Shown in pieces: positions 6,282 through 30,000 of a DNA stretch of 37,308 bases. The notes beneath the pieces are model-generated. The model ran no database searches, was not told the origin of the DNA, and saw only the letters and a program-made list of their open reading frames with translations. Numbering within the stretch: the stretch's first letter is position 1; the number at the start of each line of letters is the position of its first letter. The translations under genes were made by a program, and so were the position numbers. Source of the stretch: Verrucomicrobiota bacterium. GTDB lineage: Bacteria; Verrucomicrobiota; Verrucomicrobiia; Opitutales; Opitutaceae. The stretch lies in contig JAYTWC010000571.1 in assembly GCA_043743635.1 (NCBI GenBank), positions 1-37,308 of the forward strand, in the 5' to 3' direction.

Positions 6282-6289
6282 CGCCCCCC

Positions 6290-6889
6290 ATGGCCGAAGA
6301 CACCGTCGAAACCCTATATCTCAAGCTTCGGAATCCGGACTTCCTCGCGATGAAGGGGCTGTCCGGTGAGGTGCCGATCTTCATCCACGCCTATGAGGCC
6401 ACCGAGGAGGATGTTGCCCGGCAAACCGCCGACGCCCTCACCACCCGACTGCGAAACGACGGCATCGCTTGCGCCAAAATTGACCTCTTTGAATTGGTTC
6501 TGGAGCAATTAGTCGAGGAGGGCCGCCTCGATCGCATCCTCGAAAAGGAGTCTCAAATCGGCAAAGCAAAGCTCTTTGAGACGATGACCAACCTCACCGA
6601 TGCCAAGACCCGCTTGGTGCCAAGGCTAATGCGCCGCCTGGAGGCAGAGGATGCCAAGCTTTCCATCTTAACGGGCGTCGGACGCGTGTATCCTTTCCTT
6701 CGGACACACACGATTCTCGATTCCCTACAGCCGGCAATGATGCGGCAGCCGGTAGTCATGTTTTTCCCCGGGCATTACACCCAAGAACAGGGCATCGGCT
6801 CCCAACTTCGCCTCTTTGGTTCGCTACCAGCCCCTATGCTCTATCGCCCCTACTATCGTGCCTTCAATCTCGCGCACTACCGAGTTTAA
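6290..6889 (+). CDS. brxB: BREX protein BrxB (DUF1788 family)
   Basis: Internal ATG6290 of track ORF 5927..6889 gives 199 aa, the expected size and position between brxA and brxC. The sequence reads MAEDTVETLYLKLRNPDFL...IPIFIHAYEA...GVGRVYPFLRTHTILDSLQ. Confidence 0.8.
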   Translation: MAEDTVETLYLKLRNPDFLAMKGLSGEVPIFIHAYEATEEDVARQTADALTTRLRNDGIACAKIDLFELVLEQLVEEGRLDRILEKESQIGKAKLFETMTNLTDAKTRLVPRLMRRLEAEDAKLSILTGVGRVYPFLRTHTILDSLQPAMMRQPVVMFFPGHYTQEQGIGSQLRLFGSLPAPMLYRPYYRAFNLAHYRV

Positions 6890-6893
6890 TCCC

Positions 6894-10537: not shown

Positions 10538-11524
10538 ATGGTATCGCTCAAAGACCGGCTGATAAAGCATGTGGAAGCCCTCACCGGTGATCGCCTTGAT
10601 CTGTCCGCGAAGGAGGCTTCGTCACTGCCCTTGTTCCTACGCGAAAGGTATGCGGTGTTTTCCGCCCGGTTGTTTGGGCGAAAATCAATCATAGCCCTTG
10701 AAGCTGAAGGCTGGGAGATTGGGTCACCCGGCGAATATCGAAAGCATGCGGACGCCCTCAGCCAAACTCTCAATGAGCCGGTCGTGTTGGTTCTGCCAAT
10801 TCTCCCGTCCTATGCCAGAAATCGGATGGTCCAGATGGGCGTTCCGTTCATTGTCCCGGGCAGCCAAACCTTTCTCCCCGCCGGCTTGATTGATTTGCGT
10901 GAGCGGTTTGCCCAGCCCGGTCTCAAACGGCGCGAAACCCTCAGTCCTGCCGCGCAATGCACCCTCCTCTACCACCTGCTGCGCGGCCCGCTCGCAGGCA
11001 GGCCGCTCAAGGAGATCGCGGAGAAACTGCACTACTCGCCGATGATGATCACGAAGGTGAAAGACGAGTTTGAGGCGGCAGAAATCTGCCAGATTGTCCG
11101 GAGCGGTCGCTCAACCGTCTTGAATTTCACCGCAACCGGGTACGACCTTTGGAAACGCGTTGCTCCTCATCTGACTTCCCCCGTCAAAAAAACGCGTTGG
11201 GTAAATTGGGGTAAGCCAACAGCCCCCGCATTGCTTGCCGGGATGAGCGCGCTGAGCGAGCGCACCATGATCAGCGCCGAGCGCCTGCCCACCTATGCCC
11301 TGACGCTCACGGCCTATCAGGACCTGTTGGAGCGAGGGGGCATGGCAGGTTGCCGCGATGCCGAGAGCGCGACGGCAAGCATTGAGGTCTGGTCCTACAA
11401 TCCGCACCTCTTCGGCGACGTCCGGATGGTGGACCCGCTCTCCCTCTACCTGAGTCTCCGTGCGACAGAAGACGAGCGCGTTCAGCAGCAGCTGAATCGG
11501 CTTATCGAGGAGGTCAAATGGTAG
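10538..11524 (+). CDS. wHTH protein, AbiEi-like antitoxin/regulator candidate
   Basis: Track ORF starts at GTG10517, but ATG10538 (MVSLKDRL) is preferred. There is a central winged-helix-like segment (LLYHLLRGPLAGRPLKEIAEKLHYSPMMITKVKDEF) and a C-terminal VDPLSLYLSLRATEDERV motif like the partners of AbiEii NTases. Its 3' end overlaps the next gene by 7 nt. Confidence 0.55.
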   Translation: MVSLKDRLIKHVEALTGDRLDLSAKEASSLPLFLRERYAVFSARLFGRKSIIALEAEGWEIGSPGEYRKHADALSQTLNEPVVLVLPILPSYARNRMVQMGVPFIVPGSQTFLPAGLIDLRERFAQPGLKRRETLSPAAQCTLLYHLLRGPLAGRPLKEIAEKLHYSPMMITKVKDEFEAAEICQIVRSGRSTVLNFTATGYDLWKRVAPHLTSPVKKTRWVNWGKPTAPALLAGMSALSERTMISAERLPTYALTLTAYQDLLERGGMAGCRDAESATASIEVWSYNPHLFGDVRMVDPLSLYLSLRATEDERVQQQLNRLIEEVKW

Positions 11525-12300
11525 GGGGCCTCGATCTTTTTCGTGAGCGTTTCAAAGAATTTGAAGGCTCCTTTGTCCTGATTGGTGGAGCTGCCTGCGA
11601 CGAGTGGTTTGGGACCGCCGGGCTGGAATTCCGGGGCACCAAGGATCTCGATATCGTCCTGATCATCGAAGTGCTGTCCCCGGCTGCCATCAAGGCGCTG
11701 CGGACGTTTGTCTCCGACGGAGGTTATGAGATTCGCGAAAAAACCGAGGGAGTTCCAGTGCTCTATCGTTTTGCCAAGCCTAAGAACGAAGCTTTCCCAT
11801 ACATGCTGGAGTTCTTCAGCCGCAAACCTGAAGGCATCCAACTGGGCGAGAAGCAGGGCATCGTTCCCGTGCGGGCCGATGCAGATCAGCACAGCTTGTC
11901 GGCCCTGCTGCTGGATGACGCCTACTATTCGTTGATCCAAAAACACCATGCCGTTCACGACGGGCTCCCCTTTGCCACCGCGACCGCGCTCATTCCCCTG
12001 AAGGCCTTGGCCTGGCACAACCTGACCCGAGACAAAGCCGCCGGGCTTAAGGTTGATTCAAAGAATATCACCAAGCATCGAAACGACGTCTTCCGCCTAG
12101 CCGGCACTCTGCCCGGCCAGCCAGGTCCAGAACTGCCAAAGTCCATTACGGACGAGCTCGACCGTTTTCTCCATTCCTTCCCAGAGAAATCACCGGAATG
12201 GCCATCGATCCTCGCTGCGCTGAAAAACACCTTGGGCGGCAGGATTCAACCGGCTGCCTTGCGCTTGGCGATTCAGGTCTTTTTCCGTCTCACTCCATGA
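11518..12300 (+). CDS. Pol-beta-fold nucleotidyltransferase, AbiEii/AbiGii-like toxin candidate
   Basis: 260 aa. The NTase signature is FVLIGGAAC...GTKDLDIVL (GG-x-A ... D-x-D). Its stop overlaps the pglX start (ATGA at 12297-12300). Confidence 0.6.
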   Translation: MVGGLDLFRERFKEFEGSFVLIGGAACDEWFGTAGLEFRGTKDLDIVLIIEVLSPAAIKALRTFVSDGGYEIREKTEGVPVLYRFAKPKNEAFPYMLEFFSRKPEGIQLGEKQGIVPVRADADQHSLSALLLDDAYYSLIQKHHAVHDGLPFATATALIPLKALAWHNLTRDKAAGLKVDSKNITKHRNDVFRLAGTLPGQPGPELPKSITDELDRFLHSFPEKSPEWPSILAALKNTLGGRIQPAALRLAIQVFFRLTP

Positions 12301-15300
12301 ACCTTTCCGCCCTCAAGACCTTCGCCCCCGCCGTTCGCCTCCAACTGATGGAGGCTGTCACGCGCAAACTGGACTTCGTACTGACCGGGGACACCGCCGA
12401 TCTGCGCGCCATGAGCGCTCAGCGCGCGGTCTTGCGCGGTGAGGCCACGCGGAACCGTGCGGGGCTTGTCGAACGCGTCGCCTATATTTGGTTCAATCGC
12501 CTGGCTGCGCTTCGTTTCATCGATGCACAGGGTTGGCATCCGTTTGGCGCTCGCGTGCTCACCGCCAAAACCAGTGACGAGACCCAACCTGAACTCCTCC
12601 GTCTGGTTCGTTCCGGACAACTCCCCGCGGAGCTCGCACCGCACACCGATCCTGACCGGCTCAATCGCCTGCTCGATGGCGAGCTACCCTCGCCGAACCC
12701 GCAGGCCGAGGTTTATCGTCACCTCGTGCTCGCCGCCTGTCGCTTTTATCACGCATTGCTGCCCGCGCTGTTTGAAAAACTCGACGACGAAACCGAACTG
12801 CTCCTGCCCGACGATTTGCTCACGGAGCATTCTGTCGTTCACGGTTTCCGCACCGCAATCGCCGACGCCGACTGCGCGGAGGTCGAGATCCTGGGCTGGC
12901 TGTATCAATTCTATATTTCGGAAAAGAAGGACCAGGTCATGGCGCGAAAGAGCGCGGTACCCACAGAGGATATCCCTGCGGTCACCCAGCTTTTTACTCC
13001 GCATTGGATAGTTCGGTATCTCGTGGAGAATTCCCTCGGACGGCTTTGGTTGCTCAATCGGCCGCAGTCGAAACTCCGGGAAAAGATGCCTTACTATATC
13101 GAAGGTGAACCGGAGGCAGATTTCCTGAAGATCGGCAAACCGGAGGAAATAAAAATTATCGATCCGGCCTGCGGCAGCGGGCACATGCTCACGTATGCGT
13201 TTGATCTGCTCCAAGCGATCTACGAGGAAGAAGGTTATGCTCCGTCCGATATCGCGGGGTTGATCCTGCGGCACAATCTCCACGGCGTGGAAATCTGTGA
13301 TCGCGCCGCCACCCTCGCTGCCTTTGCGCTTTGCATGAAGGCGCGCAGCTGCGACAAGCGCTTCTTCAGCCGCGTGGCCCAACCGCAGATAATCGCTTTG
13401 CAGGAAGTGCGCTTTGAAGAAGGCGAACTTTCGGCCTATTTCAGTGCGCTCGGTGCTCAGCCTTCAACGCTCCACCCTGAATTCACTCGACTCCTCAACC
13501 AATTCGAAGAAGCCAAGAATTTCGGGTCGTTGATTCAACCCTGTCTGACCGAGCCGGAGATTCAGCGTGTCCGTTCCGAGATCGAAAATCGTAAATCGAA
13601 AATCGTAAACGACGCCGACCTCTTGGTCGGCGCGACGCACCTCAAAGTCCTTCGCGTGCTCGAACAAGCCCAGGCCCTCACCCAGCGGTATCACGTCGTC
13701 GTGGCTAATCCGCCGTATATGGGGAGCGGCTCGATGAATACAGGGCTAAAGACTTACGCAGAGACGTACTATGCGAGGTCACAATCAGACCTTTTCGCTA
13801 TGTTCATCGAAGCTAACCTCCGGTTGTCGCGATCTGGTGGCTATGCCGCTCTGATAACGATGCATAGTTGGATGTTCATCTCGTCCTTCGAAGAATTACG
13901 AAGTGCTTTAGTTACCCAGCACGCATTCCTGTCAATGATTCATCTCGGGCCTCGTGCCTTTGACTCAATTGGTGGGGAGGTCGTCCAGACGACCGCTTTC
14001 GTGCTTCAAACACGAAGGCCTACTAAACGCACGACTGTATTCAAGAGGCTTACGAAAGGCGCCTGTGAAGCGGAAAAACGGGCCCTATTTGAGGTGGAAG
14101 CTAACACCTACGTCCGCCCTGTTAACCTGTTTGAATGTGTTCCAGGGAAGCCTTTCGCGTATTGGGCAAGTCCGTCGCTTTTAACTGCCTTTAAGAAGGG
14201 CACTGCTCTTGGGGAGCTTGGTAAGCCAAGGAAGGGGCTCGTGACACTGGACGACCGCCGATTCACACGGAGCTGGTGGGAAGTAGATGGTTGTAATATC
14301 GCGCTCGGCTGCAAGACCCGCAACGCAGCAAAGGAGACGCAAAAAAAATGGTTTCCAATAAATAAAGGGGGTGGTTTCCGGCGATGGTTTGGTTTTGCTG
14401 AGCAAGTCATCAACTGGTATCGCGACGGAGAGGAACTCAAGTCATTCATCGTCAGTCGCTATGGCGGCGGATCATATACCAAAGAAATTCGCAGTGAAGA
14501 ATACTATTTCAAACCGTCAATAACGTGGGGAAAAATAAACACCACGGCGCCGAGCTTTAGAGTCAGCCCAGGTGGATTCATCATGGGAGATGCGGGCCCC
14601 TGTATATTTATCGAGCTGGATTTGCTTCCAGTTCTTGGCCTACTGAACTCCAAAGTAAGCCACTCAGTTATCGAGTTGCTGTGCCCGACAGTGAACGCAG
14701 GTTCTGGTGACATCTCGAAAATACCCGTGTTGTTTGCCCCGAGCCGAAGTGATCACGGAACGGTAGTATCGGAGGCCGTAACGATTTCGCGCGCCGACTG
14801 GGACAACTTTGAGACCTCATGGGATTTTCGCGACCAGCCGTTGCTGCGGTCGGGGCTGAAGGGCGCGACGCTGGAGACGAGCTGGCGGAATTGGGAGGCG
14901 CAGAGCACCGCCGCCATCCGGCGTATGCAAGAATTGGAGACGGAGAACAATCGGCTCTTTATTACCGCCTACGGCCTCAACGGCGAATTGTCGCCGGAAG
15001 TGCCCGAGGAGCAAATCACCCTCGCCCGCGCCGACGCCCGCCGCGACATGGCCGCGTTCCTCTCCTACGCCGTCGGCTGCATGATGGGCCGCTACTCGCT
15101 CGACCTCCCCGGCCTCATCCTCGCCGACGCCGGCGCGACCGTGCAGGACTACCTAGCCAAAGTACCCAAACCAACCTTCGTTCCCGACGAGGATGGCATC
15201 CTGCCCGTACTCGACGGCGAATGGTTCGAGGACGACATCGTCAGCCGCTTCCGCGAATTCCTCCGCGTGACCTTCGGCGACGCCACGCTCAACGAGAATA

Positions 15301-15773
15301 TCCGCTTCATCGAAGAGTCACTCGGTCGAGATCTCCGCAAATACTTCCTCACCGACTTCTACAAGAACCATCTTCAAACCTACAAGAAGCGCCCCATTTA
15401 CTGGCTCTTCCGCAGTCCGAAAGGTGCCTTCGCCGCGCTGGTCTATCTGCACCGGATGACCCGCGACACGCCGAACCTGATTCTCAACCGCTACCTCCGC
15501 GACTACCTGCAAAAACTCCGCGCCCGCCTTGAGCACCTCGTCCACGCCGAAGCCACCGCCGGCACCGCCCGCGAAAAAACCGCAGCGCGCAAAGAGAGCG
15601 ATCAGCTCAAGAAAAACCTCCGCGAATGTGAAGAATGGGAACGCGACGTGTTGTTGCCCCTGGCCCAAAGCCGCCCCGAACTCGACCTCGACGACGGCGT
15701 AAAGGTCAACTACCTCAAACTCGGCGAAGCCCTCTCCCCCATCCCGGGTCTGGCGACGAAGGAGGAGGACTAA
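12297..15773 (+). CDS. pglX: BREX N6-adenine DNA methyltransferase PglX
   Basis: 1158 aa from ATG12297 (MNLSALKTFAP...), internal to track ORF 12198..15773. SAM motif I is IIDPACGSGHML and catalytic motif IV is VVANPPYMGS. The conserved C-terminal tail is DLDDGVKVNYLKLGE. Confidence 0.9.
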   Translation: MNLSALKTFAPAVRLQLMEAVTRKLDFVLTGDTADLRAMSAQRAVLRGEATRNRAGLVERVAYIWFNRLAALRFIDAQGWHPFGARVLTAKTSDETQPELLRLVRSGQLPAELAPHTDPDRLNRLLDGELPSPNPQAEVYRHLVLAACRFYHALLPALFEKLDDETELLLPDDLLTEHSVVHGFRTAIADADCAEVEILGWLYQFYISEKKDQVMARKSAVPTEDIPAVTQLFTPHWIVRYLVENSLGRLWLLNRPQSKLREKMPYYIEGEPEADFLKIGKPEEIKIIDPACGSGHMLTYAFDLLQAIYEEEGYAPSDIAGLILRHNLHGVEICDRAATLAAFALCMKARSCDKRFFSRVAQPQIIALQEVRFEEGELSAYFSALGAQPSTLHPEFTRLLNQFEEAKNFGSLIQPCLTEPEIQRVRSEIENRKSKIVNDADLLVGATHLKVLRVLEQAQALTQRYHVVVANPPYMGSGSMNTGLKTYAETYYARSQSDLFAMFIEANLRLSRSGGYAALITMHSWMFISSFEELRSALVTQHAFLSMIHLGPRAFDSIGGEVVQTTAFVLQTRRPTKRTTVFKRLTKGACEAEKRALFEVEANTYVRPVNLFECVPGKPFAYWASPSLLTAFKKGTALGELGKPRKGLVTLDDRRFTRSWWEVDGCNIALGCKTRNAAKETQKKWFPINKGGGFRRWFGFAEQVINWYRDGEELKSFIVSRYGGGSYTKEIRSEEYYFKPSITWGKINTTAPSFRVSPGGFIMGDAGPCIFIELDLLPVLGLLNSKVSHSVIELLCPTVNAGSGDISKIPVLFAPSRSDHGTVVSEAVTISRADWDNFETSWDFRDQPLLRSGLKGATLETSWRNWEAQSTAAIRRMQELETENNRLFITAYGLNGELSPEVPEEQITLARADARRDMAAFLSYAVGCMMGRYSLDLPGLILADAGATVQDYLAKVPKPTFVPDEDGILPVLDGEWFEDDIVSRFREFLRVTFGDATLNENIRFIEESLGRDLRKYFLTDFYKNHLQTYKKRPIYWLFRSPKGAFAALVYLHRMTRDTPNLILNRYLRDYLQKLRARLEHLVHAEATAGTAREKTAARKESDQLKKNLRECEEWERDVLLPLAQSRPELDLDDGVKVNYLKLGEALSPIPGLATKEED
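15660..15737 (+). repeat. Direct repeat copy A (functional pglX 3' tail) matching 19456-19533
   Basis: Hand alignment gives 70/78 nt identical to 19456-19533, in the same reading frame (LAQSRPELDLDDGVKVNYLKLGEALS vs LAQSRLELDLNDGAKVNNLKLGESLS). Confidence 0.8.
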
Positions 15774-15777
15774 ACCC

Positions 15778-16977
15778 ATGGCCGACGATGCATCACAATT
15801 TTCGGCATCCGAGCCCGCACTGGGTTACTTGTATCAAATTCGATACGCTTTGCTGGAGGTTTTTCACCAGCCGGAGGAATCCGTCTGCTATATAGAAAAA
15901 GACGATGATGTAGATTTCAGCGATCCGGAGGAAGGCCGCATCCTAGCATCACTGAAGCATAAGGCACCCGGTGACACGCTTACGAATTTGTCGCCCGACT
16001 TTTGGAAATCAGTGCGCATTTGGCTAACCGATTACCTTAAAGATCCGGATTCTATAGTCCCGGCACGTTATTATTTGGTTACCACGGGAAAGGTTCAGAT
16101 TGGGTCGTTGCTAGCTTCATTTTTGCCGAACGCTCAGCCACCAGGAGATCTTCAAACCCAGATCGACGGGGTACTCGCTAGCTCCACATCGAAGACGATA
16201 AAAAAGACCCGCGATCTATTGGCTTTGCTCCCCCCGGCAAAATGGAGCCATTTTTTCCAGCGGATCACTATCTTCGATATTCAAGAAAGGATTAACGAGA
16301 TACCCCAGCGGATCATGAGCGGATTTCGATCAGTTCGTCCAAAATTCCGCCTTCCCGTTTATCAACGTCTAGTGGGATGGTGGGATGAGGAGTGCATCAA
16401 GCTCTTAACCGGCCAACGCAAGGAGCCGTTCCGCGGCGCAGAAGTATCTGAGATGCTCAGTTTTTTTTCGGAGCAGTTTCGAGATGACAATCTCCCAATC
16501 GATTTCGAAAAAGCCGAACCCGAAGGCGGCGTAAATCCTGATTCGGATAACCGGTACTTCGTTAAACAGCTTCGAGCGATCGGGCTTAAATCAGACCGCA
16601 TTACCAGAGCGATTCTCGACTACTATCGCGCCTCAGAACAACGCGGCGCGTGGCTCCGTGAAAACGTCACGCTCGACGGCGAGGTAGAGAGATACGACGA
16701 TCGGTTGGTTGAGGAGTGGGCTCGCATTCGCGAGATCACCTTCGAAGACCTAAGCGACGACGCTTCCGAAGAAGTGCTTCAGCAATTGGGCAAAAAACTG
16801 CTGACCGACCTTTCAACACGAGATAATCCCAATCTCCGCATTCGGAGGGAGGTCACGGCGAGCTTCGTATCAATGGGCAGCTATCATATCCTCGCCAATG
16901 ATACGTGTCCACGGGTACACTGGCACCCCCGTTTCACAGAACGCGTCGCCGAAATTCTCCACGGGAGGAAAACATGA
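15778..16977 (+). CDS. ABC-3C effector component: DUF4297/Cap4-type PD-(D/E)xK nuclease N-domain plus ABC-3C C-terminal domain
   Basis: 399 aa starting 4 nt after the pglX stop. The N-terminus GYLYQIRYALLE...CYIEKDDDVDF...ASLKHK matches the DUF4297 nuclease pattern. It is the first gene of an ATGA-coupled triplet with a middle component and a DUF3732 ATPase. Confidence 0.7.
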   Translation: MADDASQFSASEPALGYLYQIRYALLEVFHQPEESVCYIEKDDDVDFSDPEEGRILASLKHKAPGDTLTNLSPDFWKSVRIWLTDYLKDPDSIVPARYYLVTTGKVQIGSLLASFLPNAQPPGDLQTQIDGVLASSTSKTIKKTRDLLALLPPAKWSHFFQRITIFDIQERINEIPQRIMSGFRSVRPKFRLPVYQRLVGWWDEECIKLLTGQRKEPFRGAEVSEMLSFFSEQFRDDNLPIDFEKAEPEGGVNPDSDNRYFVKQLRAIGLKSDRITRAILDYYRASEQRGAWLRENVTLDGEVERYDDRLVEEWARIREITFEDLSDDASEEVLQQLGKKLLTDLSTRDNPNLRIRREVTASFVSMGSYHILANDTCPRVHWHPRFTERVAEILHGRKT

Positions 16978-17465
16978 AAACGTGGGACAAACGACCTCGC
17001 GAAGTTCGCACCCTTTTCAACCCTGCCTTCTGCGGATTGGTTTTGGCCAGAGGGATCGAGGGCTTCGCCACAGAAGCCGGCCGCCCCATGCCATTTTCGC
17101 TAACATTGTTGATCCTTCCACTGTGCTTGCACAAACGAACCCGCGAGCTGCTCAAAGACGCCAATCGATCTTACCTGACGAACATTCTTCAGGAGCATCC
17201 AGAGATTCGCGTCGATCTGGCGCAACGGGCTCGCGGTTTGTTTTCCTACACCATGGAGGCGTTCGCCTATCTCATGGCGTGCGAGGTCATTGAGGTAGAC
17301 GGCAGCGGAGGGATAGCCTTGCGCGCCGACGCCCGCGTCAGGAAAACCATTGCTGGGTCTCAGGACACTAAAGACTGCCAAACCGTAGCTCGTGCCTTGG
17401 GCACAAAGCTGGCCCGGATCAATGATCGGGCGACCATTTATACAACGCTAGGAATCAGACCATGA
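16974..17465 (+). CDS. ABC-3C middle component
   Basis: 163 aa from ATG16974, internal to track ORF 16905..17465, with GGAGG upstream and ATGA overlap with the upstream stop. MKTWDKRPREVRTLFNPAFCGLVL...LTLLILPLCLHKRTRELL is typical of three-component ABC system middle components. Confidence 0.65.
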   Translation: MKTWDKRPREVRTLFNPAFCGLVLARGIEGFATEAGRPMPFSLTLLILPLCLHKRTRELLKDANRSYLTNILQEHPEIRVDLAQRARGLFSYTMEAFAYLMACEVIEVDGSGGIALRADARVRKTIAGSQDTKDCQTVARALGTKLARINDRATIYTTLGIRP

Positions 17466-19408
17466 ATATACGCGATATCGTAATCTACAGCCACACCGGC
17501 GACATCAGGCGGATCACCTTCAAGATTCACGGCCTCAACATCATCACCGGCCGATCTTCTACCGGCAAATCGGCGCTCTCGGACATCGTCGAATATTGCA
17601 TGGGGCGCAGCGACTTTAATATCCCCGAAGGTCCCATCCGGGACAAAGTTGCTTGGTATGCAGTGATTTTCCAGTTTAGCGGCGAACAAGTCTTGATCGC
17701 CAAACCTGCCCCGGCATCCAACGCAGCCAACTGTTCGAGAGCCATGATCCTGCGTGGTGCAGCGATTGAGCCACCCACATTGGGGGAGCTGAACCAGAAT
17801 TCAGACGATGAGGGGGTCAATTCGCTGCTGTCGGAATTGCTCGGCATACCCGTGGCAAAAACCGAGGTACCGGAAAAACAAAGTCGGGCTTCCTACTTCG
17901 CGTCGATCAAGCATACGCTGTTTTACCTCTTCCAAAAGCAAGGACTCATCGCCAACAAGGATCAGCTCTTTTATCGGCAGAGTGAGCCCTTCATACCGCA
18001 GACGATAAAAGACACGATGCCCATTCTGCTCGGATTGGCTGCGGACAAGCGCCTAGAAACAGACCAGAAACTTCGAATTGCCCGGCGCGATCTCAAGATC
18101 GCGCAGAAACAGTGGTCCGAAGCCGAGCAATTCAGCGAGCAACTAAGCATGCGCGCTATTGGACTCATTTCGGAGGCGCAGCAGGTGGGCATCTTGGCTC
18201 GCCGTCCAATCCCTGCCCAATCTACTGAAGCCCTGGAAGTTCTAACCGCCATCACGCAGTGGAAGCCCACCGCCATCCCCGAAGAGGATACACGTCGGAT
18301 CGCCGGGCTGGAGGACGAGATCGCAGCTCTGCGTAGGGAAAGAATCGGTGTCAGCGAAACGCTCCGGGCGACGCAGCTATTCACTGACAAAGAGGTCGGA
18401 TTTACCAACGAGGCCAACGAACAGAAAAGTCGATTGGAATCCATCCACGCACTACCTAAGCATCCCGAGACCGGTAAATGGCAATGGCCCTTCGCCCAAA
18501 AAGATCTAGGGCTCGATACCCCGATTGGAGCTGCATTGCTTCGCGAACTTGAGTCGTTGGATCAAGAATTAAATACCGTGCAAGGCGAGCGGCCGCATCT
18601 GGAACAATATACTCTCCAAGTGCACGCTCAGCTCGACGAACTGAACCAGCAGATGAAGAGTAAAACCGAGGCTCTCGACGCAGCCATCGCCGCCAACGCA
18701 GCCATCGCTGAAATGGGGAACCGAAATGCGGCTGCGGCAAGGATTGTGGGGCGAGTGAGCTTGTTTATGGAAACATATCGACCCGATGATGATCTCACTG
18801 GATTGAAGAAGCGAATGGAGGAATTGCAGGAAATCGTTGAACGATTGGAGAAGGCCACTGGTGTAGATGACGGCGCAGAGCGCCTCGCATCGACGATCAA
18901 CATCATCTCTAATCGTATCAGTCGCTATGTTAAGGAACTGGAAGCAGAATTTTCTGAGTTCCCCTTCCGTTTTGATCTAAACCACTTGACCGTAGTGGCC
19001 GATCGACCGGAGCGGCCGGTGCCTATGAACAAAACCGGCGGCGGAGCCAATCATTTGGCCTATCATTTGGGAGCGTTGCTCGCGTTACATCACTTCACTT
19101 CGAACAACCACAAGCCCATGCCGGCTTTTCTCTTTTTGGATCAGCCTACGCAGGTCTATTTTCCATCCGAGCAGGTATACAAGTCAGCGGCTGGTTCGGT
19201 TGAGGAAACGGAACGGGATTCAGATTTGGAGAAGGTGAGAAAACTATTTGCTATGCTCTACGACTTCACAACCAAGGAGGCTCCGGGATTCCAGATAATC
19301 GTTACCGAGCATGCCAATCTCCGAGATCAATGGTTCCAAGATTCCATCGTCGAAACTCCATGGACTAAGCCGCCTGCGCTGGTCCCGTCCGAATGGCCTA
19401 ATTTTTAA
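17462..19408 (+). CDS. ABC-3C ABC/SMC-like ATPase (DUF3732 family)
   Basis: 648 aa with ATGA overlap to the upstream gene. Walker A is GRSSTGKSA, followed by a long coiled-coil insert. C-terminal signature/Walker B region: GGGANHLAYHLGALLAL...FLFLDQPTQVYFP. Confidence 0.75.
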   Translation: MNIRDIVIYSHTGDIRRITFKIHGLNIITGRSSTGKSALSDIVEYCMGRSDFNIPEGPIRDKVAWYAVIFQFSGEQVLIAKPAPASNAANCSRAMILRGAAIEPPTLGELNQNSDDEGVNSLLSELLGIPVAKTEVPEKQSRASYFASIKHTLFYLFQKQGLIANKDQLFYRQSEPFIPQTIKDTMPILLGLAADKRLETDQKLRIARRDLKIAQKQWSEAEQFSEQLSMRAIGLISEAQQVGILARRPIPAQSTEALEVLTAITQWKPTAIPEEDTRRIAGLEDEIAALRRERIGVSETLRATQLFTDKEVGFTNEANEQKSRLESIHALPKHPETGKWQWPFAQKDLGLDTPIGAALLRELESLDQELNTVQGERPHLEQYTLQVHAQLDELNQQMKSKTEALDAAIAANAAIAEMGNRNAAAARIVGRVSLFMETYRPDDDLTGLKKRMEELQEIVERLEKATGVDDGAERLASTINIISNRISRYVKELEAEFSEFPFRFDLNHLTVVADRPERPVPMNKTGGGANHLAYHLGALLALHHFTSNNHKPMPAFLFLDQPTQVYFPSEQVYKSAAGSVEETERDSDLEKVRKLFAMLYDFTTKEAPGFQIIVTEHANLRDQWFQDSIVETPWTKPPALVPSEWPNF

Positions 19409-19455
19409 ATGTCCTTCCAAACGCCATCGCCGATGCACTGGAGAACATTGAGTAG

Positions 19456-19575
19456 TTGGCCCAAAGCCGCCTCGAACTCGACCTCAACGACGGCGCAAAG
19501 GTCAACAATCTCAAACTCGGCGAATCCCTCTCGCATCAACCGTCCAGAGGTAAAAAAACTGATTGGTCATCCTAG
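19456..19575 (+). pseudogene. Relic 3' end of a pglX-type methyltransferase gene (40 codons including stop)
   Basis: Reads LAQSRLELDLNDGAKVNNLKLGESLSHQPSRGKKTDWSS* and is about 90% identical at nt level to 15660-15737. It is immediately preceded by an in-frame TAG (19453-19455). Its stop lies 9 nt before the next gene's start. Confidence 0.75.
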
Positions 19576-19596
19576 ACTGCCCCAATGACTAATCAG
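19559..19596 (+). promoter_or_regulatory. 12-bp stem / 14-nt loop hairpin that sequesters the start codon of the 19585 gene
   Basis: CUGAUUGGUCAU (19559-19570) pairs with AUGACUAAUCAG (19585-19596), giving 11 Watson-Crick pairs plus one G-U. The right arm begins with the AUG. Confidence 0.4.
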
Positions 19597-20541
19597 CAGC
19601 GCATTGAAGATTTCCTTCAACCCAAACCTAGCGGTTGGTGTGACAAATGCCTGTCCATTGAACTTACCATAACGCCGACCAATCAAGTGAACGGCATATG
19701 TGCTAAGTCCCAGCTGATTTGTCGGTCGGTTGGGGTCTGTGATGGTTGCGGCGAGAATCGACAGATTAACACATTTAGACCTGACTCAGATCCGATTTCG
19801 CCCCCGCCGCGAAAACCGAAACAGGCAAAGACTAAGGTGGAAAATTACCTGCGTGAGGAAGACATCAAGGAGAGGATCAATAGCACACTGGTCGAAGCAC
19901 TCGGAATACCTGCGCAAGACTACTATTCTCAAATGGGGTTTTGTAATCTCCTCCTGCTGAAATCCGGCCTCGCTCGCATTCACGATATAATCACCCTGAA
20001 ACTCACCCTGGCACTGGTGGAACGGATGGGGCAGCGATTCAATCTCGACGAAGCCGCGTTGGCCAAACTCAGGCAATCCGTGAGCGGGATCCATCCGAAT
20101 GCCGCAGGATTTGATCTTGATATCAAAGACCCCAACCTCATCGGCGAAGTGAAGGGGAATATTCCGGTGAACAAAGGATCGACCTTTGGCGCAGACCAAC
20201 TCAAGGGGCTGAGAAACGACGTGCTTCAAATGCTAGGCCATCCTGCTCGGGCCAATGAAAAGAACGAGCCATCTGAACGAGCTAAAATCAATCGTGCCGG
20301 GCGTGATAAAGCCATCAAAGTCCTCGGTCTTTACGACTCGCCTGAAGTGAGAGCAGCCACCGACAAGTGGCGAAAGAGCCTCATGGCCTCACCAGCGTGG
20401 AAGCCGCTGAGCGTCTTCTCGATTCAGGAACTACCAGAAACCGGCAATCTCTCGCCTGATATCGTTTACCTCATATATCTCACGCCGAAGCATGGGATAG
20501 ATCCAATCACGTCTAGCCTCGCAACAAAGGAGAATGAATGA
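19585..20541 (+). CDS. Hypothetical protein: N-terminal Zn-ribbon (CDKC...CDGC) plus PD-(D/E)xK-like motif
   Basis: 318 aa. The candidate nuclease core is GFDLDIKDPNLIGEVKGNIP (D ... E-x-K). Its stop overlaps the start of the DUF262 gene (ATGA at 20538). Confidence 0.55.
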   Translation: MTNQQRIEDFLQPKPSGWCDKCLSIELTITPTNQVNGICAKSQLICRSVGVCDGCGENRQINTFRPDSDPISPPPRKPKQAKTKVENYLREEDIKERINSTLVEALGIPAQDYYSQMGFCNLLLLKSGLARIHDIITLKLTLALVERMGQRFNLDEAALAKLRQSVSGIHPNAAGFDLDIKDPNLIGEVKGNIPVNKGSTFGADQLKGLRNDVLQMLGHPARANEKNEPSERAKINRAGRDKAIKVLGLYDSPEVRAATDKWRKSLMASPAWKPLSVFSIQELPETGNLSPDIVYLIYLTPKHGIDPITSSLATKENE

Positions 20542-22733
20542 GCGTCTCCTCTGCCATCGACCCGACGGCGGGGCCTTCCAGTTTTGCTCTGCCACTACGG
20601 CATATCGCCTCCTGGCATGACATCCCTGAAATCACCGAACGTCCGCAGCCACGAGCAAGCGTGCCCGTGTTGCAACGCGGCCTCGTTTGGAACCCTGCGC
20701 AGATCGAATTACTTTGGGACTCGATTCTTCGAGGATTCCCAATCGGAGCGTTAGTTTTGAGCGCCAAAATATCGGGGCAAACCAAGGCCAATGAAGAGAC
20801 AAGAACCGATATCACACATCATTTGCTAGATGGGCAACAACGATGCGATGCTATCGCGCTTGGTTATAAAGATCCGTTCGGCACCTTGCATGGACAATCT
20901 GAAAGCAAAGCCGGCACATCCATTCTTTGGCTTGATCTCGATCCCCTAAAAAATCAGTGGAGCACGCGGGAATTCGTCGTCCGCCTGACCACGCCCTCGC
21001 ACCCGTGGGGTTATACGCGAAACGATGATGCCTTTCCGCTCGGCGCACAAATCATCCGGGAAGCTCTGAAACGTATCGGCCAAAATCCTGCGGCAGAAAA
21101 TTACCGGCGGCCGACACCCGCCGAGCTTTGTCCTCAAGCTGCGAAAACACCAGTACCCTTGGCCTGGCTGCTCCTCAATGGGCAAGAGGCTGATTTTTGG
21201 GGCACTCTGCTCACGCACTTACCGGAGAAGGATGATTTGCCGTGGCACGGCAGCCTCCGCGATTTCCTTAAGGACCCAGAGAAAGAGCCGCAACGTACAC
21301 GTATTTTGAATGCGGTCCGGCGAATCGAGCACACCAGAATCATTGGCCTATGTGCGCCAAATTTGGACTTGGATTCCCGGCAGGAGACTGAGAGTGCGCC
21401 CGAGCGCGCCAATATTTCCAGTATCGAGCACCTCTTTCAGCGGCTCAATCAGCAAGGCACTCCGCTCGACGGTGAGGAGCTGGCCTACTCTATGATCAAG
21501 GCCTACTGGCCGGAGCTCGCAAGTCCCATAGACACAATCGAGAAACCGATGCCTGCCACTCGGCTAATTTCACTTGGTATCCGCGCCGCATTGGCTGGAG
21601 AGAATCGCGAACACCTTCCCGCCGCCTTGGGAGTAAGCCAAATCCGCAAGTTGGCGGGCAAACAGGATGACCGGACATCGCTCGTATATAAATACATTAA
21701 CAATGACCTGGCGCACGGGTGCAAACGGGTGAGCCAATGGCTGCGCTACGATGCAGAGCTAAACCCGAGTGGGCTCCTTCCGGTGCATATCGCCTGTATA
21801 GCCCATGACTCGCCGGACCTTTTCCTGCTGCTACTAACCTTCGCCCAACGCCCAGACACAGATTGGCAGATCCCAGAGTCAGAGCGAGCGCGTTGCATAC
21901 AAGCCATGGCTACAGTCGTGCATTGGTTCGGTCGCGACAAACCGGCCATTGCCAACCGCCTTTTTGCGGCCTGCGGAGAGCACATCACCCACCAAAAGAT
22001 CCAACTCGCTTTAGCCGGGGCGCTGCAAGCGGGCCACCTCCGCCCTGTCCACTCTCCGAAGACAGTCGAGGCCTTTTTCCATGAAATGCCTCAGACCGTC
22101 CTTCTGAATTGGAACTGGGGGACCATAGGACATGGCGACAAGTCTGACGAAGAGCGTAAGAAAATCTGGGATCGCTGGGGCGAGTTTCTCTGGTTCAGAG
22201 ACAAGAAAGAGCTGCTCGTGTATGCCCAACGCGATTTTCTCCATCGGCGATTTCCCGAATACGATCCGGCCCGGAAAGATTTTTGGAAGGGCCACAACCG
22301 TCCGTGGGATTACGACCACATCCTGGCCAATACCTACGTTCACGGTAAGCAGGGTGATTATAAAAGCGCTTGTGCGGAATGGGTGAACACCATTGGAAAT
22401 TTCCGAGCTTGGCCGATGGAGGACAATCGTTCGGATCAAGAGGAGACCGCGCAGAAGAAAGTACCGGAGACCGATGCGACATCGAAAACAAACTCGCGAA
22501 GAGACAGTTTTCTCGAAAACGATAACCTCGCTGCATTCTCTCAGGGGCACGAGACAAGGAAGAAACCGGAACTCGCGGCGGCTTTCATCGCAGCCTGCCG
22601 CGATCGAATGCTCAGAATCTATCGGACTTGGTATGAATCGGTCGGAGTTGCAGATTTGATCACCCCAGATCAAAAACCTACTCGTGCCATTGAATCACAC
22701 CCAACCTCACTGATCGCTTCGGCGACGCCTTAA
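20538..22733 (+). CDS. DUF262/DUF1524 protein, GmrSD-family type IV restriction enzyme (BrxU-like)
   Basis: 731 aa. The N-terminal DUF262 motifs are LQRGLVWNPAQIELLWDSILRGFPIG and DGQQR. The C-terminal His-Me finger-like region is WDYDHILA...NTIGNFRAWPMEDNRSD. The position inside a BREX locus parallels BrxU. Confidence 0.8.
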   Translation: MSVSSAIDPTAGPSSFALPLRHIASWHDIPEITERPQPRASVPVLQRGLVWNPAQIELLWDSILRGFPIGALVLSAKISGQTKANEETRTDITHHLLDGQQRCDAIALGYKDPFGTLHGQSESKAGTSILWLDLDPLKNQWSTREFVVRLTTPSHPWGYTRNDDAFPLGAQIIREALKRIGQNPAAENYRRPTPAELCPQAAKTPVPLAWLLLNGQEADFWGTLLTHLPEKDDLPWHGSLRDFLKDPEKEPQRTRILNAVRRIEHTRIIGLCAPNLDLDSRQETESAPERANISSIEHLFQRLNQQGTPLDGEELAYSMIKAYWPELASPIDTIEKPMPATRLISLGIRAALAGENREHLPAALGVSQIRKLAGKQDDRTSLVYKYINNDLAHGCKRVSQWLRYDAELNPSGLLPVHIACIAHDSPDLFLLLLTFAQRPDTDWQIPESERARCIQAMATVVHWFGRDKPAIANRLFAACGEHITHQKIQLALAGALQAGHLRPVHSPKTVEAFFHEMPQTVLLNWNWGTIGHGDKSDEERKKIWDRWGEFLWFRDKKELLVYAQRDFLHRRFPEYDPARKDFWKGHNRPWDYDHILANTYVHGKQGDYKSACAEWVNTIGNFRAWPMEDNRSDQEETAQKKVPETDATSKTNSRRDSFLENDNLAAFSQGHETRKKPELAAAFIAACRDRMLRIYRTWYESVGVADLITPDQKPTRAIESHPTSLIASATP

Positions 22734-22746
22734 ATTCGATTCCCGC

Positions 22747-25251
22747 ATGAAGCGCATCCACGAAAGCCTCAAACTCGTTCTCCAGCGCCACCGGCTCGTT
22801 TTCTGGTATGACGCGACCCGCGAATGGGAGAAAGCCTACGAAGCCTTCGTTGCCGACGGAGTGCGTAAAATCACAGTCGCGGGCACGGAGTTTGGCGCCA
22901 AAGTTGCCATCCATCGTGCACCCGAGGAACGGTTCCTCGTCTATCTACCCAGCGCCCGCCCCCTCGATGCGGACAACTGGCTGCTCGATCTCTTGCTCCA
23001 GGGTCATGAGTACAAAGCCGATCGCGCTTCACTCGCATTGCAGGATGTCGGTCTTCCCTACGAACTGCGGCCCGTGATCGAGGCGCATGTGAGCTTTTTC
23101 GATTCGCCCAAACGAATTGAGACGTTGCGCGGATTGCTCGTGTCAAACGAGGAGCCTGCCTCCCTTCGGCGAAAGCTCATGGCGGTAGCGGCTGGTTCAA
23201 CTTTGCCCGAGATTGATGCCGTGTTGCTGGCCTTCCTCGCCCGCACTCAAGAAGCTCAAGGCAACGACCTGGTCGATATGGTACAAGGAACATTTGGCGG
23301 TTTTGGCTTGACCGTTCCGTTTTGGCGAGAGGTAAACCTCGCTTTCAGCTACGAAAGTGAAACGCCGTCACTGAAGGACTTTTCGCGGTCGCTCTTTCGG
23401 GCCGCCAACCCACTCGACCACGGGATAAAGCTGAGCGCACACGCGCAGGTGTTTCTCCAACACTGGAAAGACAGCCAGGCATTTAGTCCCGCCTATCGTC
23501 GTTGGGCCGCGCTGATGGAAAGCGAACTCAACCTTGACCATCAGCTGGACGCCCTGGATGACATGCGGCTGCTCGGCAATTGTGATGCCTTTCCTCTGAT
23601 GGAACGCTACGTTTTGCATCGGCTTTGCGGAGCGTTTGAGACCGACAGCCTGTCCAGCACCGAGCTACTGGCCCGCATCCAACAACGAAAGAGCTCTTTT
23701 TGGTACAGCGATCACCGTCACGGTTACGCCGCGCTGGAGCAGGCCATCGACCTTAAGCAACGGCTCGCTGGTGCTGAGTTAAGAATCGAGTCAATCGACG
23801 TCGGTATTCAGCGGTACACGACAACGTGGCATCGCATCGATACGGCCTATCGCAAGTTTCACTTCCATGCGCGCAGCTACGGTCAGATCGGGCTTTTGGG
23901 CCGAATTGCCGAACGAGTTGAAAAGACCTATCTGGCTAACTTCTTGCTACCGCTAGCAGATCGCTGGGGCGACCAAGTTGCAAAGCTGCCAGCGTGGCCA
24001 GGAGAGGTTTCGGTGGCGAAGCAGGTGGATTTCTACGACCGCTACGTGAAGCCATTTGTCGAGAAGGGACAAAAGGTCTGCGTTATTATTTCTGACGCAC
24101 TTCGATACGAGATCGGTGTGGAACTGATGGAGCGTCTGCTTGCCGAAAACCGGTGGAAAGCGGAAATCGAGCCCCTGTTAGGCGTATTGCCAAGTTATAC
24201 CCAGCTCGGCATGGCCGCACTTCTACCTGGATCGGTTCGGTCGATAAATCTCGATACCCGCACGGTGACAATCGACGGCAAGTCTTCCGCTGGCACTGAA
24301 GCCAGAAATGAAATTCTCGCGGCCGCAGTTTCATCACCGGCGGGTGCGTTGAAGGCAGAGGATTTCATGGAGATGAATACCGGGACCGAAGCTCGCGCCG
24401 TGATCCGTGATCACCAAGTCATCTACATCTACCACAATGTCATTGATGACACCGGGGACAAACTCGCCACCGAAGCACAGACCACCGAGGCGATCGAAGA
24501 GGCACTCGATGGTCTGCTAAAGCTGATAAAAAAAGCAGTGAATGCTAACGCCAGCCAGATACTGCTCACCGCCGACCACGGGTTTCTATTTCAACAAACT
24601 GATGTTTCAGAGACGGACGACTTACCGCTTCCTTCGGCCGAGTGGCTCTTCCCCCACCGGCGTTTCGCACTCGGACGCAACCTCAGGTCTTCAACGGGGG
24701 TAAAGACTTTCACCGCCGAGGCGCTCGGTCTGACCGGCGACTTTGTCGCGGCCTTCCCGCTGGCACTCGGACGATTTCCACTAAAAGGATCTGGCAAACG
24801 ATTCGTCCACGGAGGCTTCAGCCTACAGGAAGTGCTGGTGCCGGTTCTGCGTATCCATAAAACCCGTACAGACGACACTGAACGCGTCGAAATCGACCTG
24901 CTCCGAGCTCCAACCAAGATCACGACGGGACGCGTGTCGCTCACGCTTTACCAAGACCGACCGACAGCGACTAAGGTGCTCGGCCGTAACCTACGTGTGG
25001 GTATCTTCACAGTGGATGGAGTAGCCATCTCGGAACTCAAAACACTCGCGTTTGACTCAACTGAGGCAGAGGCGCGCCAGCGTGAAACCGTGATCGATTT
25101 GGCGCTCTCCCGTGCGGCCGATCCTTTCAACGGGAAAGAAGTCGAGATCCGCATTGAGGAAGTGACCGCCGGCAACCAGAATGCCCTGCCCTATAAATAC
25201 CACCGCCTGAAATTGCAGAAACCATTCGCAACCGACTTCGATGAGCTCTGA
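22747..25251 (+). CDS. pglZ: BREX alkaline-phosphatase-superfamily protein PglZ
   Basis: 834 aa. The N-terminus has RLVFWYD. PglZ-domain motifs are VCVIISDALRYEIG and LLTADHGF. It is followed by brxL with an 11-nt overlap. Confidence 0.9.
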   Translation: MKRIHESLKLVLQRHRLVFWYDATREWEKAYEAFVADGVRKITVAGTEFGAKVAIHRAPEERFLVYLPSARPLDADNWLLDLLLQGHEYKADRASLALQDVGLPYELRPVIEAHVSFFDSPKRIETLRGLLVSNEEPASLRRKLMAVAAGSTLPEIDAVLLAFLARTQEAQGNDLVDMVQGTFGGFGLTVPFWREVNLAFSYESETPSLKDFSRSLFRAANPLDHGIKLSAHAQVFLQHWKDSQAFSPAYRRWAALMESELNLDHQLDALDDMRLLGNCDAFPLMERYVLHRLCGAFETDSLSSTELLARIQQRKSSFWYSDHRHGYAALEQAIDLKQRLAGAELRIESIDVGIQRYTTTWHRIDTAYRKFHFHARSYGQIGLLGRIAERVEKTYLANFLLPLADRWGDQVAKLPAWPGEVSVAKQVDFYDRYVKPFVEKGQKVCVIISDALRYEIGVELMERLLAENRWKAEIEPLLGVLPSYTQLGMAALLPGSVRSINLDTRTVTIDGKSSAGTEARNEILAAAVSSPAGALKAEDFMEMNTGTEARAVIRDHQVIYIYHNVIDDTGDKLATEAQTTEAIEEALDGLLKLIKKAVNANASQILLTADHGFLFQQTDVSETDDLPLPSAEWLFPHRRFALGRNLRSSTGVKTFTAEALGLTGDFVAAFPLALGRFPLKGSGKRFVHGGFSLQEVLVPVLRIHKTRTDDTERVEIDLLRAPTKITTGRVSLTLYQDRPTATKVLGRNLRVGIFTVDGVAISELKTLAFDSTEAEARQRETVIDLALSRAADPFNGKEVEIRIEEVTAGNQNALPYKYHRLKLQKPFATDFDEL

Positions 25252-29701: not shown

Positions 29702-29920
29702 ATGAACCGAACGCCCACCGCCGCCAAAATCACATCGGGTCGCATTGTCGATATCTATGATCGGTGCGGAAATTACCTGCACCGCGTCAATGTCAGCCCA
29801 CGTCAGGCAATCGCTGCCGTGGTCACACCGGATACGCTCACCGTCAGCCTCGTTGATGGACACGTGCAGGTGTTTGCACTGAGCAAAAATACTTCGCCCG
29901 TACTGCGCTACACTCGGTGA
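29702..29920 (+). CDS. Small hypothetical protein (72 aa) upstream of the WYL regulator
   Basis: ORF with GC3-rich codon usage similar to its neighbours. No motif recognised, and whether it is coding is uncertain. Confidence 0.35.
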   Translation: MNRTPTAAKITSGRIVDIYDRCGNYLHRVNVSPRQAIAAVVTPDTLTVSLVDGHVQVFALSKNTSPVLRYTR

Positions 29921-30000
29921 AAACGGCACGCTCAGGCAGCATCGTGAGTGTTCATGCTTGGCGGTGGTTCCTGTCCCAGCTAGGCTCGCTCCACCTCCAG

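Follow-up and report, generated by a model that had tools for sequence, protein, structure and literature searches.

Defence genes, GmrSD-like genes among them, have been found nested within bacteriophage exclusion (BREX), DISARM, Hma and type I restriction–modification loci (Payne et al. 2024, bioRxiv 10.1101/2024.01.29.577857), and BrxU/GmrSD in the BREX locus of pEFER is among the cases cited in that preprint. A 2026 survey of BREX likewise catalogues nested effectors and does not discuss scars (PMC12839542). The nesting of defence systems is thus already known, and it has been used to discover new systems. Here we describe a type I BREX operon on a metagenome scaffold (contig JAYTWC010000571.1, from a Verrucomicrobiota bacterium) in which a second, fragmentary copy of the 3′ end of the methyltransferase gene pglX lies behind a nested three-gene Lamassu (ABC-3C) module. 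The whole stretch of DNA analysed, 37,308 nucleotides (nt) of the + strand, is called the window, and coordinates are window positions unless another locus is named.

Integrative islands duplicate their attachment (att) sites in the 3′ ends of genes. A duplicated pglX with phase-variable specificity was reportedly described in BREX by Goldfarb et al. in 2015, and homology-facilitated illegitimate recombination is said to have been described in natural transformation by de Vries and Wackernagel in 2002. Orphan arrays of the Rhs and contact-dependent inhibition (CDI) type are a further parallel for the stacking of modules. The orphan modules of the Vibrio cholerae type VI secretion system (T6SS) are attributed, in the account given in PMC8189183 (citing Kirchberger et al. 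2017), to homologous recombination together with homology-facilitated illegitimate recombination. The comparisons reported below suggest that the pglX fragment in the window is probably the seam of an illegitimate join between two type I BREX haplotypes, by which Lamassu was stacked on a module consisting of a 318-amino-acid (aa) protein and a DUF262 protein.

Results

A fragment of the pglX 3′ end lies behind the Lamassu module

The end of pglX (15660–15737) and a stretch in the 176-nt spacer between lmuB and the 318-aa gene (19456–19533) are identical at 70 of 78 positions, and the ungapped core of the repeat (15661–15736 against 19457–19532) matches at 70 of 76 (92%). The two copies are direct, lie 3796 nt apart and share the codon phase of pglX, in agreement with a sequence-only reading of this DNA that had proposed the repeat from a hand alignment. 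Their local alignment score is 122, compared with 17.8 ± 2.6 (maximum 26) for the pglX end against about 300 random window positions, and chance similarity as the source of the repeat is thereby ruled out. Comparison of the window with itself recovered the same core; the next repeat is only 29–30 nt long at 67–79% identity, the pglX-tail repeat being by far the longest. The frame of the second copy is preceded by an in-frame TAG (19453–19455) and stays open to a stop at 19573–19575, and the ATG of the next gene, at 19585, lies 9 nt beyond; all of this is as the sequence-only reading had described it. The three ABC-3C genes that it had placed between the copies were identified as those for LmuA, LmuC and LmuB, so that all three Lamassu components are present. 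Its remark that the cassette is low in GC holds against the pglX 3′ end (0.49–0.56 compared with 0.61), but the difference is not distinctive, the middle of pglX (0.515–0.55) and the downstream slot genes with pglZ (0.50–0.57) being similarly low.

Similarity to pglX ends abruptly on both sides of the fragment, and neither its 47-nt left flank nor its 51-nt right flank shows similarity to the pglX tail. Counted from the end of the stop codon, the fragment (hereafter the relic) runs from −113 to −37. It is therefore an internal piece of the tail, 26 codons long and spanning the last 38 to 13 codons of pglX, and the canonical PglX end is not included in it.

The relic is young and decaying, the pglX–Lamassu junction old

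Across the 120 homologues listed, few parts of PglX are as conserved as its last ~40 residues (LPLAQxRxELDLDDGVKVNYLKLGEALAPIPGLAAKEED), and the C-terminal tail of the window PglX is canonical, agreeing with all 120. The relic encodes LAQSRLELDLNDGAKVNNLKLGESLS and then diverges into HQPSRGKKTDWSS before its stop codon; none of the 120 listed homologues has this ending. Relatives were compared as numbered loci, the closest of which were reached via protein look-ups. When the differences between relic and live tail were polarised with the tails of loci L164, L163 and L003, all eight proved to have arisen in the relic, the live tail having gained none. The changes affect seven codons, five of them non-synonymously, and D124N, V127A and Y131N fall on residues that are invariant across a 15-sequence PglX alignment. 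The relic therefore evolves without protein constraint. No promoter-like or terminator-like site was found in 19409–19584, and a search for a structured RNA or tRNA insertion site gave no Rfam match, no tRNA and a fold z-score of −0.11. To judge from its sequence, the second copy is a non-functional, decaying pglX 3′ fragment; it is inert today, a pseudogene fragment without present role.

The relic carries all five or six of the substitutions specific to the window lineage, including the unusual A-to-S change in ...EALS, and its Jukes–Cantor distance from the live tail is 0.11, which together indicate that it split recently from the window's own type of tail. Synonymous divergence (dS) between the window and L164 is 1.4–2.2 for brxC, lmuB, lmuC, pglZ and brxL and is saturated for lmuA, and the pglX–Lamassu junction is therefore old, having diverged along with the operon. 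Given that the junction is old and the relic young, the relic is not the footprint of Lamassu's first arrival behind pglX.

Separately, dS against L164 is much lower for the 260-aa gene upstream of pglX (11518–12297; 0.57) and for the last 250 codons of pglX (15021–15770; 0.72) than for the neighbouring genes, which hints at more recent exchange or at homogenisation of conserved pglX ends.

The relic adjoins the stump of a second gene

Immediately behind the lmuB stop lie 47 nt with the sequence ATGTCCTTCCAAACGCC...GAGAACATTGAGTAG, which align, with 39 matches, to the first 54 nt of a gene for a DUF262/GmrSD_N protein of ~589 aa, from which they differ by deletions of 1 nt and 6 nt and by a change of CAG to TAG. 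This alignment scores 49, compared with 9.0 ± 3.6 (maximum 29) in 2000 shuffles, and the 17-nt start motif of the stump is unique in the window, with no occurrence expected by chance. The matching DUF262 gene directly follows the pglX stop in the close relatives L163 and L175/176. With a DUF262 5′ stump on the left and a pglX 3′ stump on the right, the boundary between 19455 and 19456 therefore joins two truncated genes, which argues for an illegitimate join of two gene orders rather than for the insertion of a cassette into an intact tail.

As for the 51 nt to the right of the relic (19534–19584), they match neither the pglX tail nor the L164 spacer nor any of the fetched loci; in length they roughly equal the absent 37 nt of tail and a spacer taken together. 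Neither the window spacer nor the DUF262 gene start is significantly similar to the lmuB–pglZ spacer of L164 (p 0.07–0.2).

Gene orders in related BREX loci

The closest locus, L164/165, is collinear with the window from brxA to brxL at ~76% nt identity and has the order pglX–LmuA–LmuC–LmuB–169 nt–pglZ, with no detectable relic, no 318-aa gene and no DUF262 gene; the same order (pglX–Lamassu–pglZ), with an orthologous module at an equivalent junction, is found in L026. The junction between the pglX stop and the LmuA ATG is alike in the window and L164 (TAG-ACTC-ATG against TAA-ACCC-ATG), and in L005, too, Lamassu begins after the pglX stop plus 3–4 nt with an ATG. Other relatives carry different contents between pglX and pglZ: pglX–(17–22 nt)–310 aa–pglZ in L166/167 and L169–171, a homologue of the 19585 gene directly after pglX in L168, pglX–318-like–GmrSD–pglZ in L004, pglX–DUF262 (589 aa)–pglZ in L175/176, and pglX–DUF262 (586 aa)–helicase–TOTE–pglZ in L163. 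The pglX–pglZ slot is therefore hypervariable in this clade.

Relatives in which pglX is directly followed by the 19585-family gene, with a pglX tail of the relic type, had been predicted from the window. The predicted gene order does occur (L166/167, L168, L169–171 and L004), but the pglX tails in front of this gene are canonical, ending in ...PIPGLAAKEE and the stop, and none ends in SHQPSRGKKTDWSS. A difference in ancestry between the left and right halves of the operon was not detectable, L164 being the closest locus for both.

The same two modules stacked with a pglZ scar

L004 and L005 come from Prosthecobacter metagenome-assembled genomes and are collinear at 80–87% identity; L005 equals L004 plus a 3.9-kb insert placed exactly after the pglX stop. 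In the insert, LmuA–LmuC–LmuB are followed by 42 nt, by 172 nt that repeat the pglZ 5′ end from its ATG onward, and by a further 85 nt, after which the 318-like gene, GmrSD and pglZ follow in the order seen in L004. The pglZ copy (14120–14291 against 17638–17807 of L005) has 83.5% identity with the resident gene, and its translation reads MKRIHYSLQHVFQRHRLVFWYD.... Over the last kb of pglX, agreement between L005 and L004 per 100 nt runs 96, 97, 90, 86, 94, 88, 83, 67, 77 and 85, and the last ~350 nt of L005 pglX are probably donor-derived, having entered with Lamassu via a homologous crossover inside pglX.

On this comparison, L005 has the same two modules stacked a second time, independently and in the same order, the scar being a pglZ head and not a pglX tail. 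The pglZ-head scar mirrors the pglX-tail relic in the window, with L004 as the 'empty' counterpart of L005. Between the window and L005, LmuB is 74% identical, compared with 55% for PglZ and 57% for BrxC; Lamassu is closer than the BREX core and has therefore moved between BREX lineages.

Relics of the pglX tail recur in other loci

The survey covered 160 PglX loci among the matches listed, in each of which the last 450 nt of pglX were compared with the rest of the locus. In an unbiased self-comparison with the window excluded, a direct copy of the pglX 3′ end outside the gene was present in 6 of 129 cases (~5%), compared with 9 of 802 other long open reading frames (ORFs) (odds ratio 4.3, p 0.011). 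Four of the six positive loci have short relics by defence cassettes (L014, L030, L117 and L145), one has a tandem full-length pglX (L091) and one a tandem array (L047). In the cyanobacterium L014, a relic of 310 nt (92% identity) lies behind an Eleos LeoBC/LeoA module; in L117/118, one of 69 nt (96%) lies behind a Septu PtuA/PtuB module; in L145, three relics (95%, 85% and 78%) separate a HEPN gene, a DO-GTPase pair and a Hachiman module; and in L030 (Altibacter), one of 72 nt (75%) lies behind a PLD nuclease. Weaker relics were seen in L124 and in L142, where the relic stands behind a kinase-like gene. A 23-nt candidate in L003 lies inside pglZ and was judged to be a chance match.

By this comparison, downstream pglX-tail relics recur across phyla. 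The copied part is always the C-terminal 19–113 codons only, mostly running through the stop codon up to the next gene, and no integrase-family match was found among the cassette genes scanned in these loci. In most cases the allele closest to the relic is the resident tail; only in L014, L124 and L030 is the relic as close or closer to tails of other loci. The L014 relic differs from its live tail by 15 synonymous and 9 non-synonymous changes, and the excess of synonymous ones indicates that it came from another functional allele.

Several further duplications were observed at pglX loci. In L014, a 45-nt hairpin repeat, CCATTCAGTCGGATTCTCAATAAAAGCCATTCATTGGGAATCCTG (8930–8974 and 10234–10278), brackets a block that holds the pglX relic and a Fic/Doc toxin–antitoxin pair; L013 has one copy of the repeat without the block, which is inserted relative to L013, and this repeat is possibly a site of frequent recombination in the flanks of cyanobacterial BREX loci. 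Tandem full-length pglX genes are present in L091 (3158–6676 and 6680–10201) and likewise as P0007/P0006 on one 15.9-kb contig. The N- and C-terminal parts of such pairs are 88–96% identical and the specificity regions 31–40%, a pattern suggestive of a BREX operon that has two methylation specificities and in which the gene ends have been homogenised. In L047 (Nitrosomonas halophila, 2002–2609), a 150-nt unit repeated ~4 times in tandem starts with the last 41 nt of pglX including the stop and continues with a hairpin-forming stretch; this array is a different kind of pglX-end duplication. The only non-C-terminal duplication found was in L126 (11603–11887), where fragments of the pglX N-terminal part (residues 202–260 and 24–47) lie downstream of a complete pglX.

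Other features of the operon

The features of the operon are collected in Table 1. All six type I BREX core genes (brxA, brxB, brxC, pglX, pglZ and brxL) were recognised with Pfam, PADLOC and NCBIfam and lie co-oriented in one cluster; PglX matches the PADLOC PglX model with 1327 bits and NCBIfam BREX_1_MTaseX, and its homologues indicate Verrucomicrobiota. Lamassu and the 318-aa/DUF262 pair occupy the pglX–pglZ slot on the same (+) strand as the core genes and are thus embedded defence genes in the sense of Payne et al. (2024).

Table 1 Coordinates of the features in and around the pglX–pglZ slot of the window
Feature	Position	Strand	Evidence or remark
brxA, brxB, brxC (type I BREX)	5472–10406	+	Pfam BrxA, BrxB, BrxC domains; L164 collinear, ~76% nt identity
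Two genes, ~328 aa and 260 aa	10517–11524 and 11518–12300	+	Between brxC and pglX
pglX, BREX-1 adenine methyltransferase, 1158 aa as called	12297–15773	+	ORF opens at 12198
Live repeat copy, pglX codons for (L)AQSRPELDLDDGVKVNYLKLGEALS	15661–15736	+	Repeat comparison
Lamassu/ABC-3C module	15778–19408	+	Pfam and PADLOC
LmuA (Pfam CTD7), effector	15778–16977	+	PADLOC 193 bits
LmuC (Pfam MC3), middle component	16974–17465	+	PADLOC 49 bits
LmuB (Pfam DUF3732), SMC-like ATPase	17462–19408	+	PADLOC 410 bits
5′ stump of DUF262/GmrSD_N gene, first ~18 codons	19409–19455	+	Alignment to gene starts of L175/176 and L163
pglX 3′ relic (core 19457–19532)	19456–19533	+	Frame open to stop 19573–19575
51 nt of unmatched sequence between relic and 318-aa gene	19534–19584	+	
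318-aa gene, rare BREX-slot family	19585–20541	+	23 homologue clusters
731-aa DUF262/GmrSD_N protein, partner of the 318-aa gene	20538–22733	+	Pfam GmrSD_N
pglZ	22747–25251	+	Pfam, PADLOC
brxL	25256–27409	+	Pfam, PADLOC

Homologues of the 318-aa gene (19585–20541 in the window) were found at 8001–8933 in both L166 and L169, at 2598–3545 in L173 and at 131–1057 in L174. In the pglX–pglZ slot the family occurs alone or with a DUF262 protein of ~730 aa in either order, and the pair is also present in L174, L173, L004 and L005. The protein has no match in Pfam, NCBIfam, PHROG or PADLOC, and no fold in the PDB matches the whole of it. Its invariant residues are C19, C22, C39, C52 and C55 together with G175-F176-D177...E188-x-K190, a PD-(D/E)xK-like pattern. 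In the AlphaFold model (pLDDT 85) the N-terminus alone resembles a winged helix, and the protein probably consists of an N-terminal Cys-rich winged-helix-like domain and a D...ExK domain.

The two conserved genes between brxC and pglX have no match in Pfam, PADLOC, NCBIfam or PHROG. Similar pairs (328–352 aa and 260 aa) are present in L164 (6082–7844), L166 (2716–4484), L168 and L169, and the pair may be a clade-specific accessory of verrucomicrobial BREX. A WYL/WCX-domain protein of the BrxR-like regulator type (29917–30993) and a DUF2726 protein (28815–29330) are encoded downstream of brxL and not upstream of brxA; unannotated ORFs flank them, and the region resembles a larger defence island.

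Discussion

In this study, a short repeat of the pglX 3′ end was traced to a junction of two gene stumps, and the relic is probably best understood as the seam at which two BREX haplotypes were illegitimately joined. One haplotype would have had the order pglX–Lamassu–DUF262 (~589 aa)–...–pglZ, and the other, closely related to it, the order pglX–318 aa–DUF262 (731 aa)–pglZ. A single homologous crossover in conserved BREX sequence, in pglX on the left or in pglZ/brxL on the right, would have been combined with a single non-homologous join linking the DUF262 gene, at codon ~18, with the pglX of the other haplotype, at −113. The product would have kept a complete pglX and both modules in a stack, with the stumps 19409–19455 and 19456–19533 left at the seam, which is the pattern that would be expected of homology-facilitated illegitimate recombination. 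Three observations fit this account: the boundary 19455/19456 joins sequences that are not adjacent in the parental orders, those orders are found in relatives, and the comparison of L004 with L005 shows the homologous side in pglX. The stumps, the parental orders in relatives, the second stacking with its different scar, the neutral decay of the relic and its youth beside the pglX–Lamassu junction are observed, whereas the recombination pathway, the donor side and the origin of the last 51 nt are inferred.

Several points weigh against this explanation. A join of two haplotypes predicts a relic that reaches the canonical stop, whereas the relic breaks off 37 nt short of where the stop would lie, and no match was found for the next 51 nt; one more event, or a parent with an unusual tail, has to be assumed. 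The missing end may reflect a third small event, an unusual tail in one parent, or erosion of the edges under gene conversion. Every state specific to the window lineage is common to the relic and the live tail, and consequently either the parental haplotypes were very close relatives or gene conversion has acted. No relative above 90% nt identity with either parental haplotype was found, the nearest being at ~76%. Donor and recipient sides are indistinguishable because the product is identical either way. The enrichment in the survey is modest (p about 0.01, ~130 loci), and the evidence for the recombination pathway consists of the scars themselves.

Gene conversion also enters in another, unlikely explanation, in which the relic is old, dates from Lamassu's first arrival behind pglX, and was kept similar to the live tail by repeated conversion while its edges eroded to the 76-nt core. 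Such a history would account for the sharp boundaries, the shared lineage states and the right flank about as long as the missing tail plus spacer, and the 318-aa family does seem to be an old resident of the slot in this clade. Conversion would, however, have to be sustained on a repeat of ~100 nt or less while dS rose above 1; in addition, the DUF262 stump shows that Lamassu once preceded a different gene and not a pglX tail, and L164 has no detectable relic.

It is quite improbable that the relic is the remainder of a second, tandem pglX, the body of which was deleted or replaced. All relics found are short C-terminal pieces (19–113 codons), whereas random deletion within a 3.5-kb gene should give a broad range of sizes, and a 5′ or middle fragment was seen only in L126. 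Full-length tandem pairs do exist, in L091 and as P0007 with P0006 on a single contig, but the relic in the window is bounded on its left by the DUF262 stump and not by pglX sequence, and it stands directly before the 318-aa gene, the place that complete pglX genes take in relatives.

The model that follows from the sequence-only reading has a mobile Lamassu cassette integrating into a complete pglX tail, which is thereby duplicated; the repeats would still serve as excision sites, at which loss of the cassette would regenerate pglX with a different tail. The three Lamassu genes, and no others, are indeed bracketed by direct repeats in one phase, relatives do show pglX directly before the 19585-family gene, and L004/L005 are compatible with Lamassu arriving together with a pglX tail. 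The claim that the cassette came with, or by recombination within, a pglX tail stands in so far as the relic is genuine pglX 3′ sequence connected with module exchange via a pglX tail; it fails at the left boundary, which is not a cassette end, since the relic adjoins the stump of a different gene and the junction is illegitimate rather than an insertion duplication. The pglX–Lamassu junction is also much older than the relic. Between the repeats lie only lmuA, lmuC and lmuB, with no tRNA or structured element at the relic and no integrase or transposase family in 15778–22733. Relic starts at −41, −69, −72, −81, −113, −114 and −310 across loci show no fixed crossover core. Neither the long identical repeats nor the two functional products of a programmed excisable or phase-variable cassette are found here, and the copy is unlike a pglX specificity shufflon in being direct, limited to the last 38–13 codons and without a recombinase nearby.

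Excision through the repeats would also meet with difficulties. The longest identical run is 15 nt within the 76 nt at 92% identity. Efficient RecA-dependent exchange usually needs roughly 20–30 nt of identity. Up to five residues would be substituted in the most conserved stretch of the recombinant PglX, three of them at positions invariant in the 15-sequence alignment, and the conserved last 12 residues (the PIPGLAxKEED end) would be lost. In Salmonella PglX, K1201 and D1213 near the C-terminus contribute to Ocr binding, charged residues of the C-terminal domain having been mutated to test the need for this domain in DNA and Ocr binding (PMC11341690), and the PglX end is therefore probably not dispensable. 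Both contigs retrieved (2 of the 4 carrying the 318-aa gene) agree with the window at 100% identity throughout the structure and keep Lamassu, the second assembly being identical over 12.4 kb, and no deletion variant lacking Lamassu was present in either. These data suggest that deletion of Lamassu via the relic would be rare and would damage PglX, and that precise excision regenerating an intact pglX, as proposed from the repeats, is unlikely; a duplicating and still excisable cassette is accordingly a very improbable source of the relic.

Least probable of all, a relic retained for function, as a promoter or regulatory site of the downstream module or as a 39-codon ORF (TTG 19456 to stop 19575), would suit the position of relics right before the next gene in several loci, the open frame and a GGAG 11 nt upstream, but it is opposed by the lack of promoter-like, terminator-like, Rfam-matching or significantly folded sequence in the spacer, by substitutions on the most conserved residues, by a ~15% likelihood of a 39-codon open frame by chance, and by the spread of other relics from 96% down to 75% identity, as decay predicts.

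Returning to the join of two haplotypes as the preferred explanation, the recurring stumps offer a route by which modules could enter BREX: exchange between BREX operons would be anchored in the conserved ends of pglX or pglZ, and one illegitimate join would stack a module instead of swapping it. In the literature on BREX nesting we found no explanation of how nested genes arrive, and the recurring stumps make such a route testable. Scars suggesting how defence systems enter BREX appear to be previously undescribed. A more general proposal, which we put forward tentatively and do not regard as likely on present evidence, is that the pglX 3′ end and the pglZ 5′ end are universal homologous 'docking arms' of an integrase-free exchange of cassettes between BREX operons, in which modules travel on one arm, are swapped when both arms recombine, and are stacked when one end joins illegitimately. 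If this were true, modules could later be gained or lost at the stumps through homologous recombination or gene conversion, and the pglX–pglZ slot would be a recombination-driven counterpart, across phyla, of the integron or the toxin orphan array. For annotation, short pglX 3′ or pglZ 5′ fragments in the slot can be taken as module boundaries.

Comparison with known systems places these findings as follows. As in the loci of Payne et al. (2024), the Lamassu and GmrSD-like genes of the window are nested between BREX core genes in the same orientation; that study catalogued embedded genes and excluded pseudogene loci, and its text contains neither 'recombination' nor 'remnant', whereas here the boundary stumps are in focus. 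Like a Goldfarb-type pglX duplication, the window has a second pglX-derived sequence in its BREX locus, but this copy is direct, has only 26 codons, and lacks a specificity domain and an adjacent recombinase. As in att duplication, a direct repeat of a gene 3′ end flanks inserted DNA and leaves the gene intact; the differences are that the window has neither an integrase nor a fixed crossover core, that relic starts vary from −41 to −310 across loci, and that the stump of a second gene stands at the junction. With homology-facilitated illegitimate recombination in natural transformation the window shares one homologous anchor, one non-homologous join and foreign DNA added beside the anchor, the difference being that the pathway proposed here is read from scars in the sequences of uncultured bacteria.

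The build-up of orphan modules in the V. cholerae T6SS is, by analogy, the nearest mechanistic parallel: in the account cited above, modules enter beside a conserved gene, older ones are pushed downstream and kept, and truncated pieces of the conserved gene remain. The window differs from the T6SS and Rhs cases in that the locus is an anti-phage operon, the anchor is the 3′ end of pglX or the 5′ end of pglZ, no functional alternative C-terminal domain follows the relic, and re-fusion is not expected. The feature is a known kind of recombination scar in a new type of locus, and although the relic in the window is ordinary by itself, the recurring stumps give a testable route for nesting in BREX.

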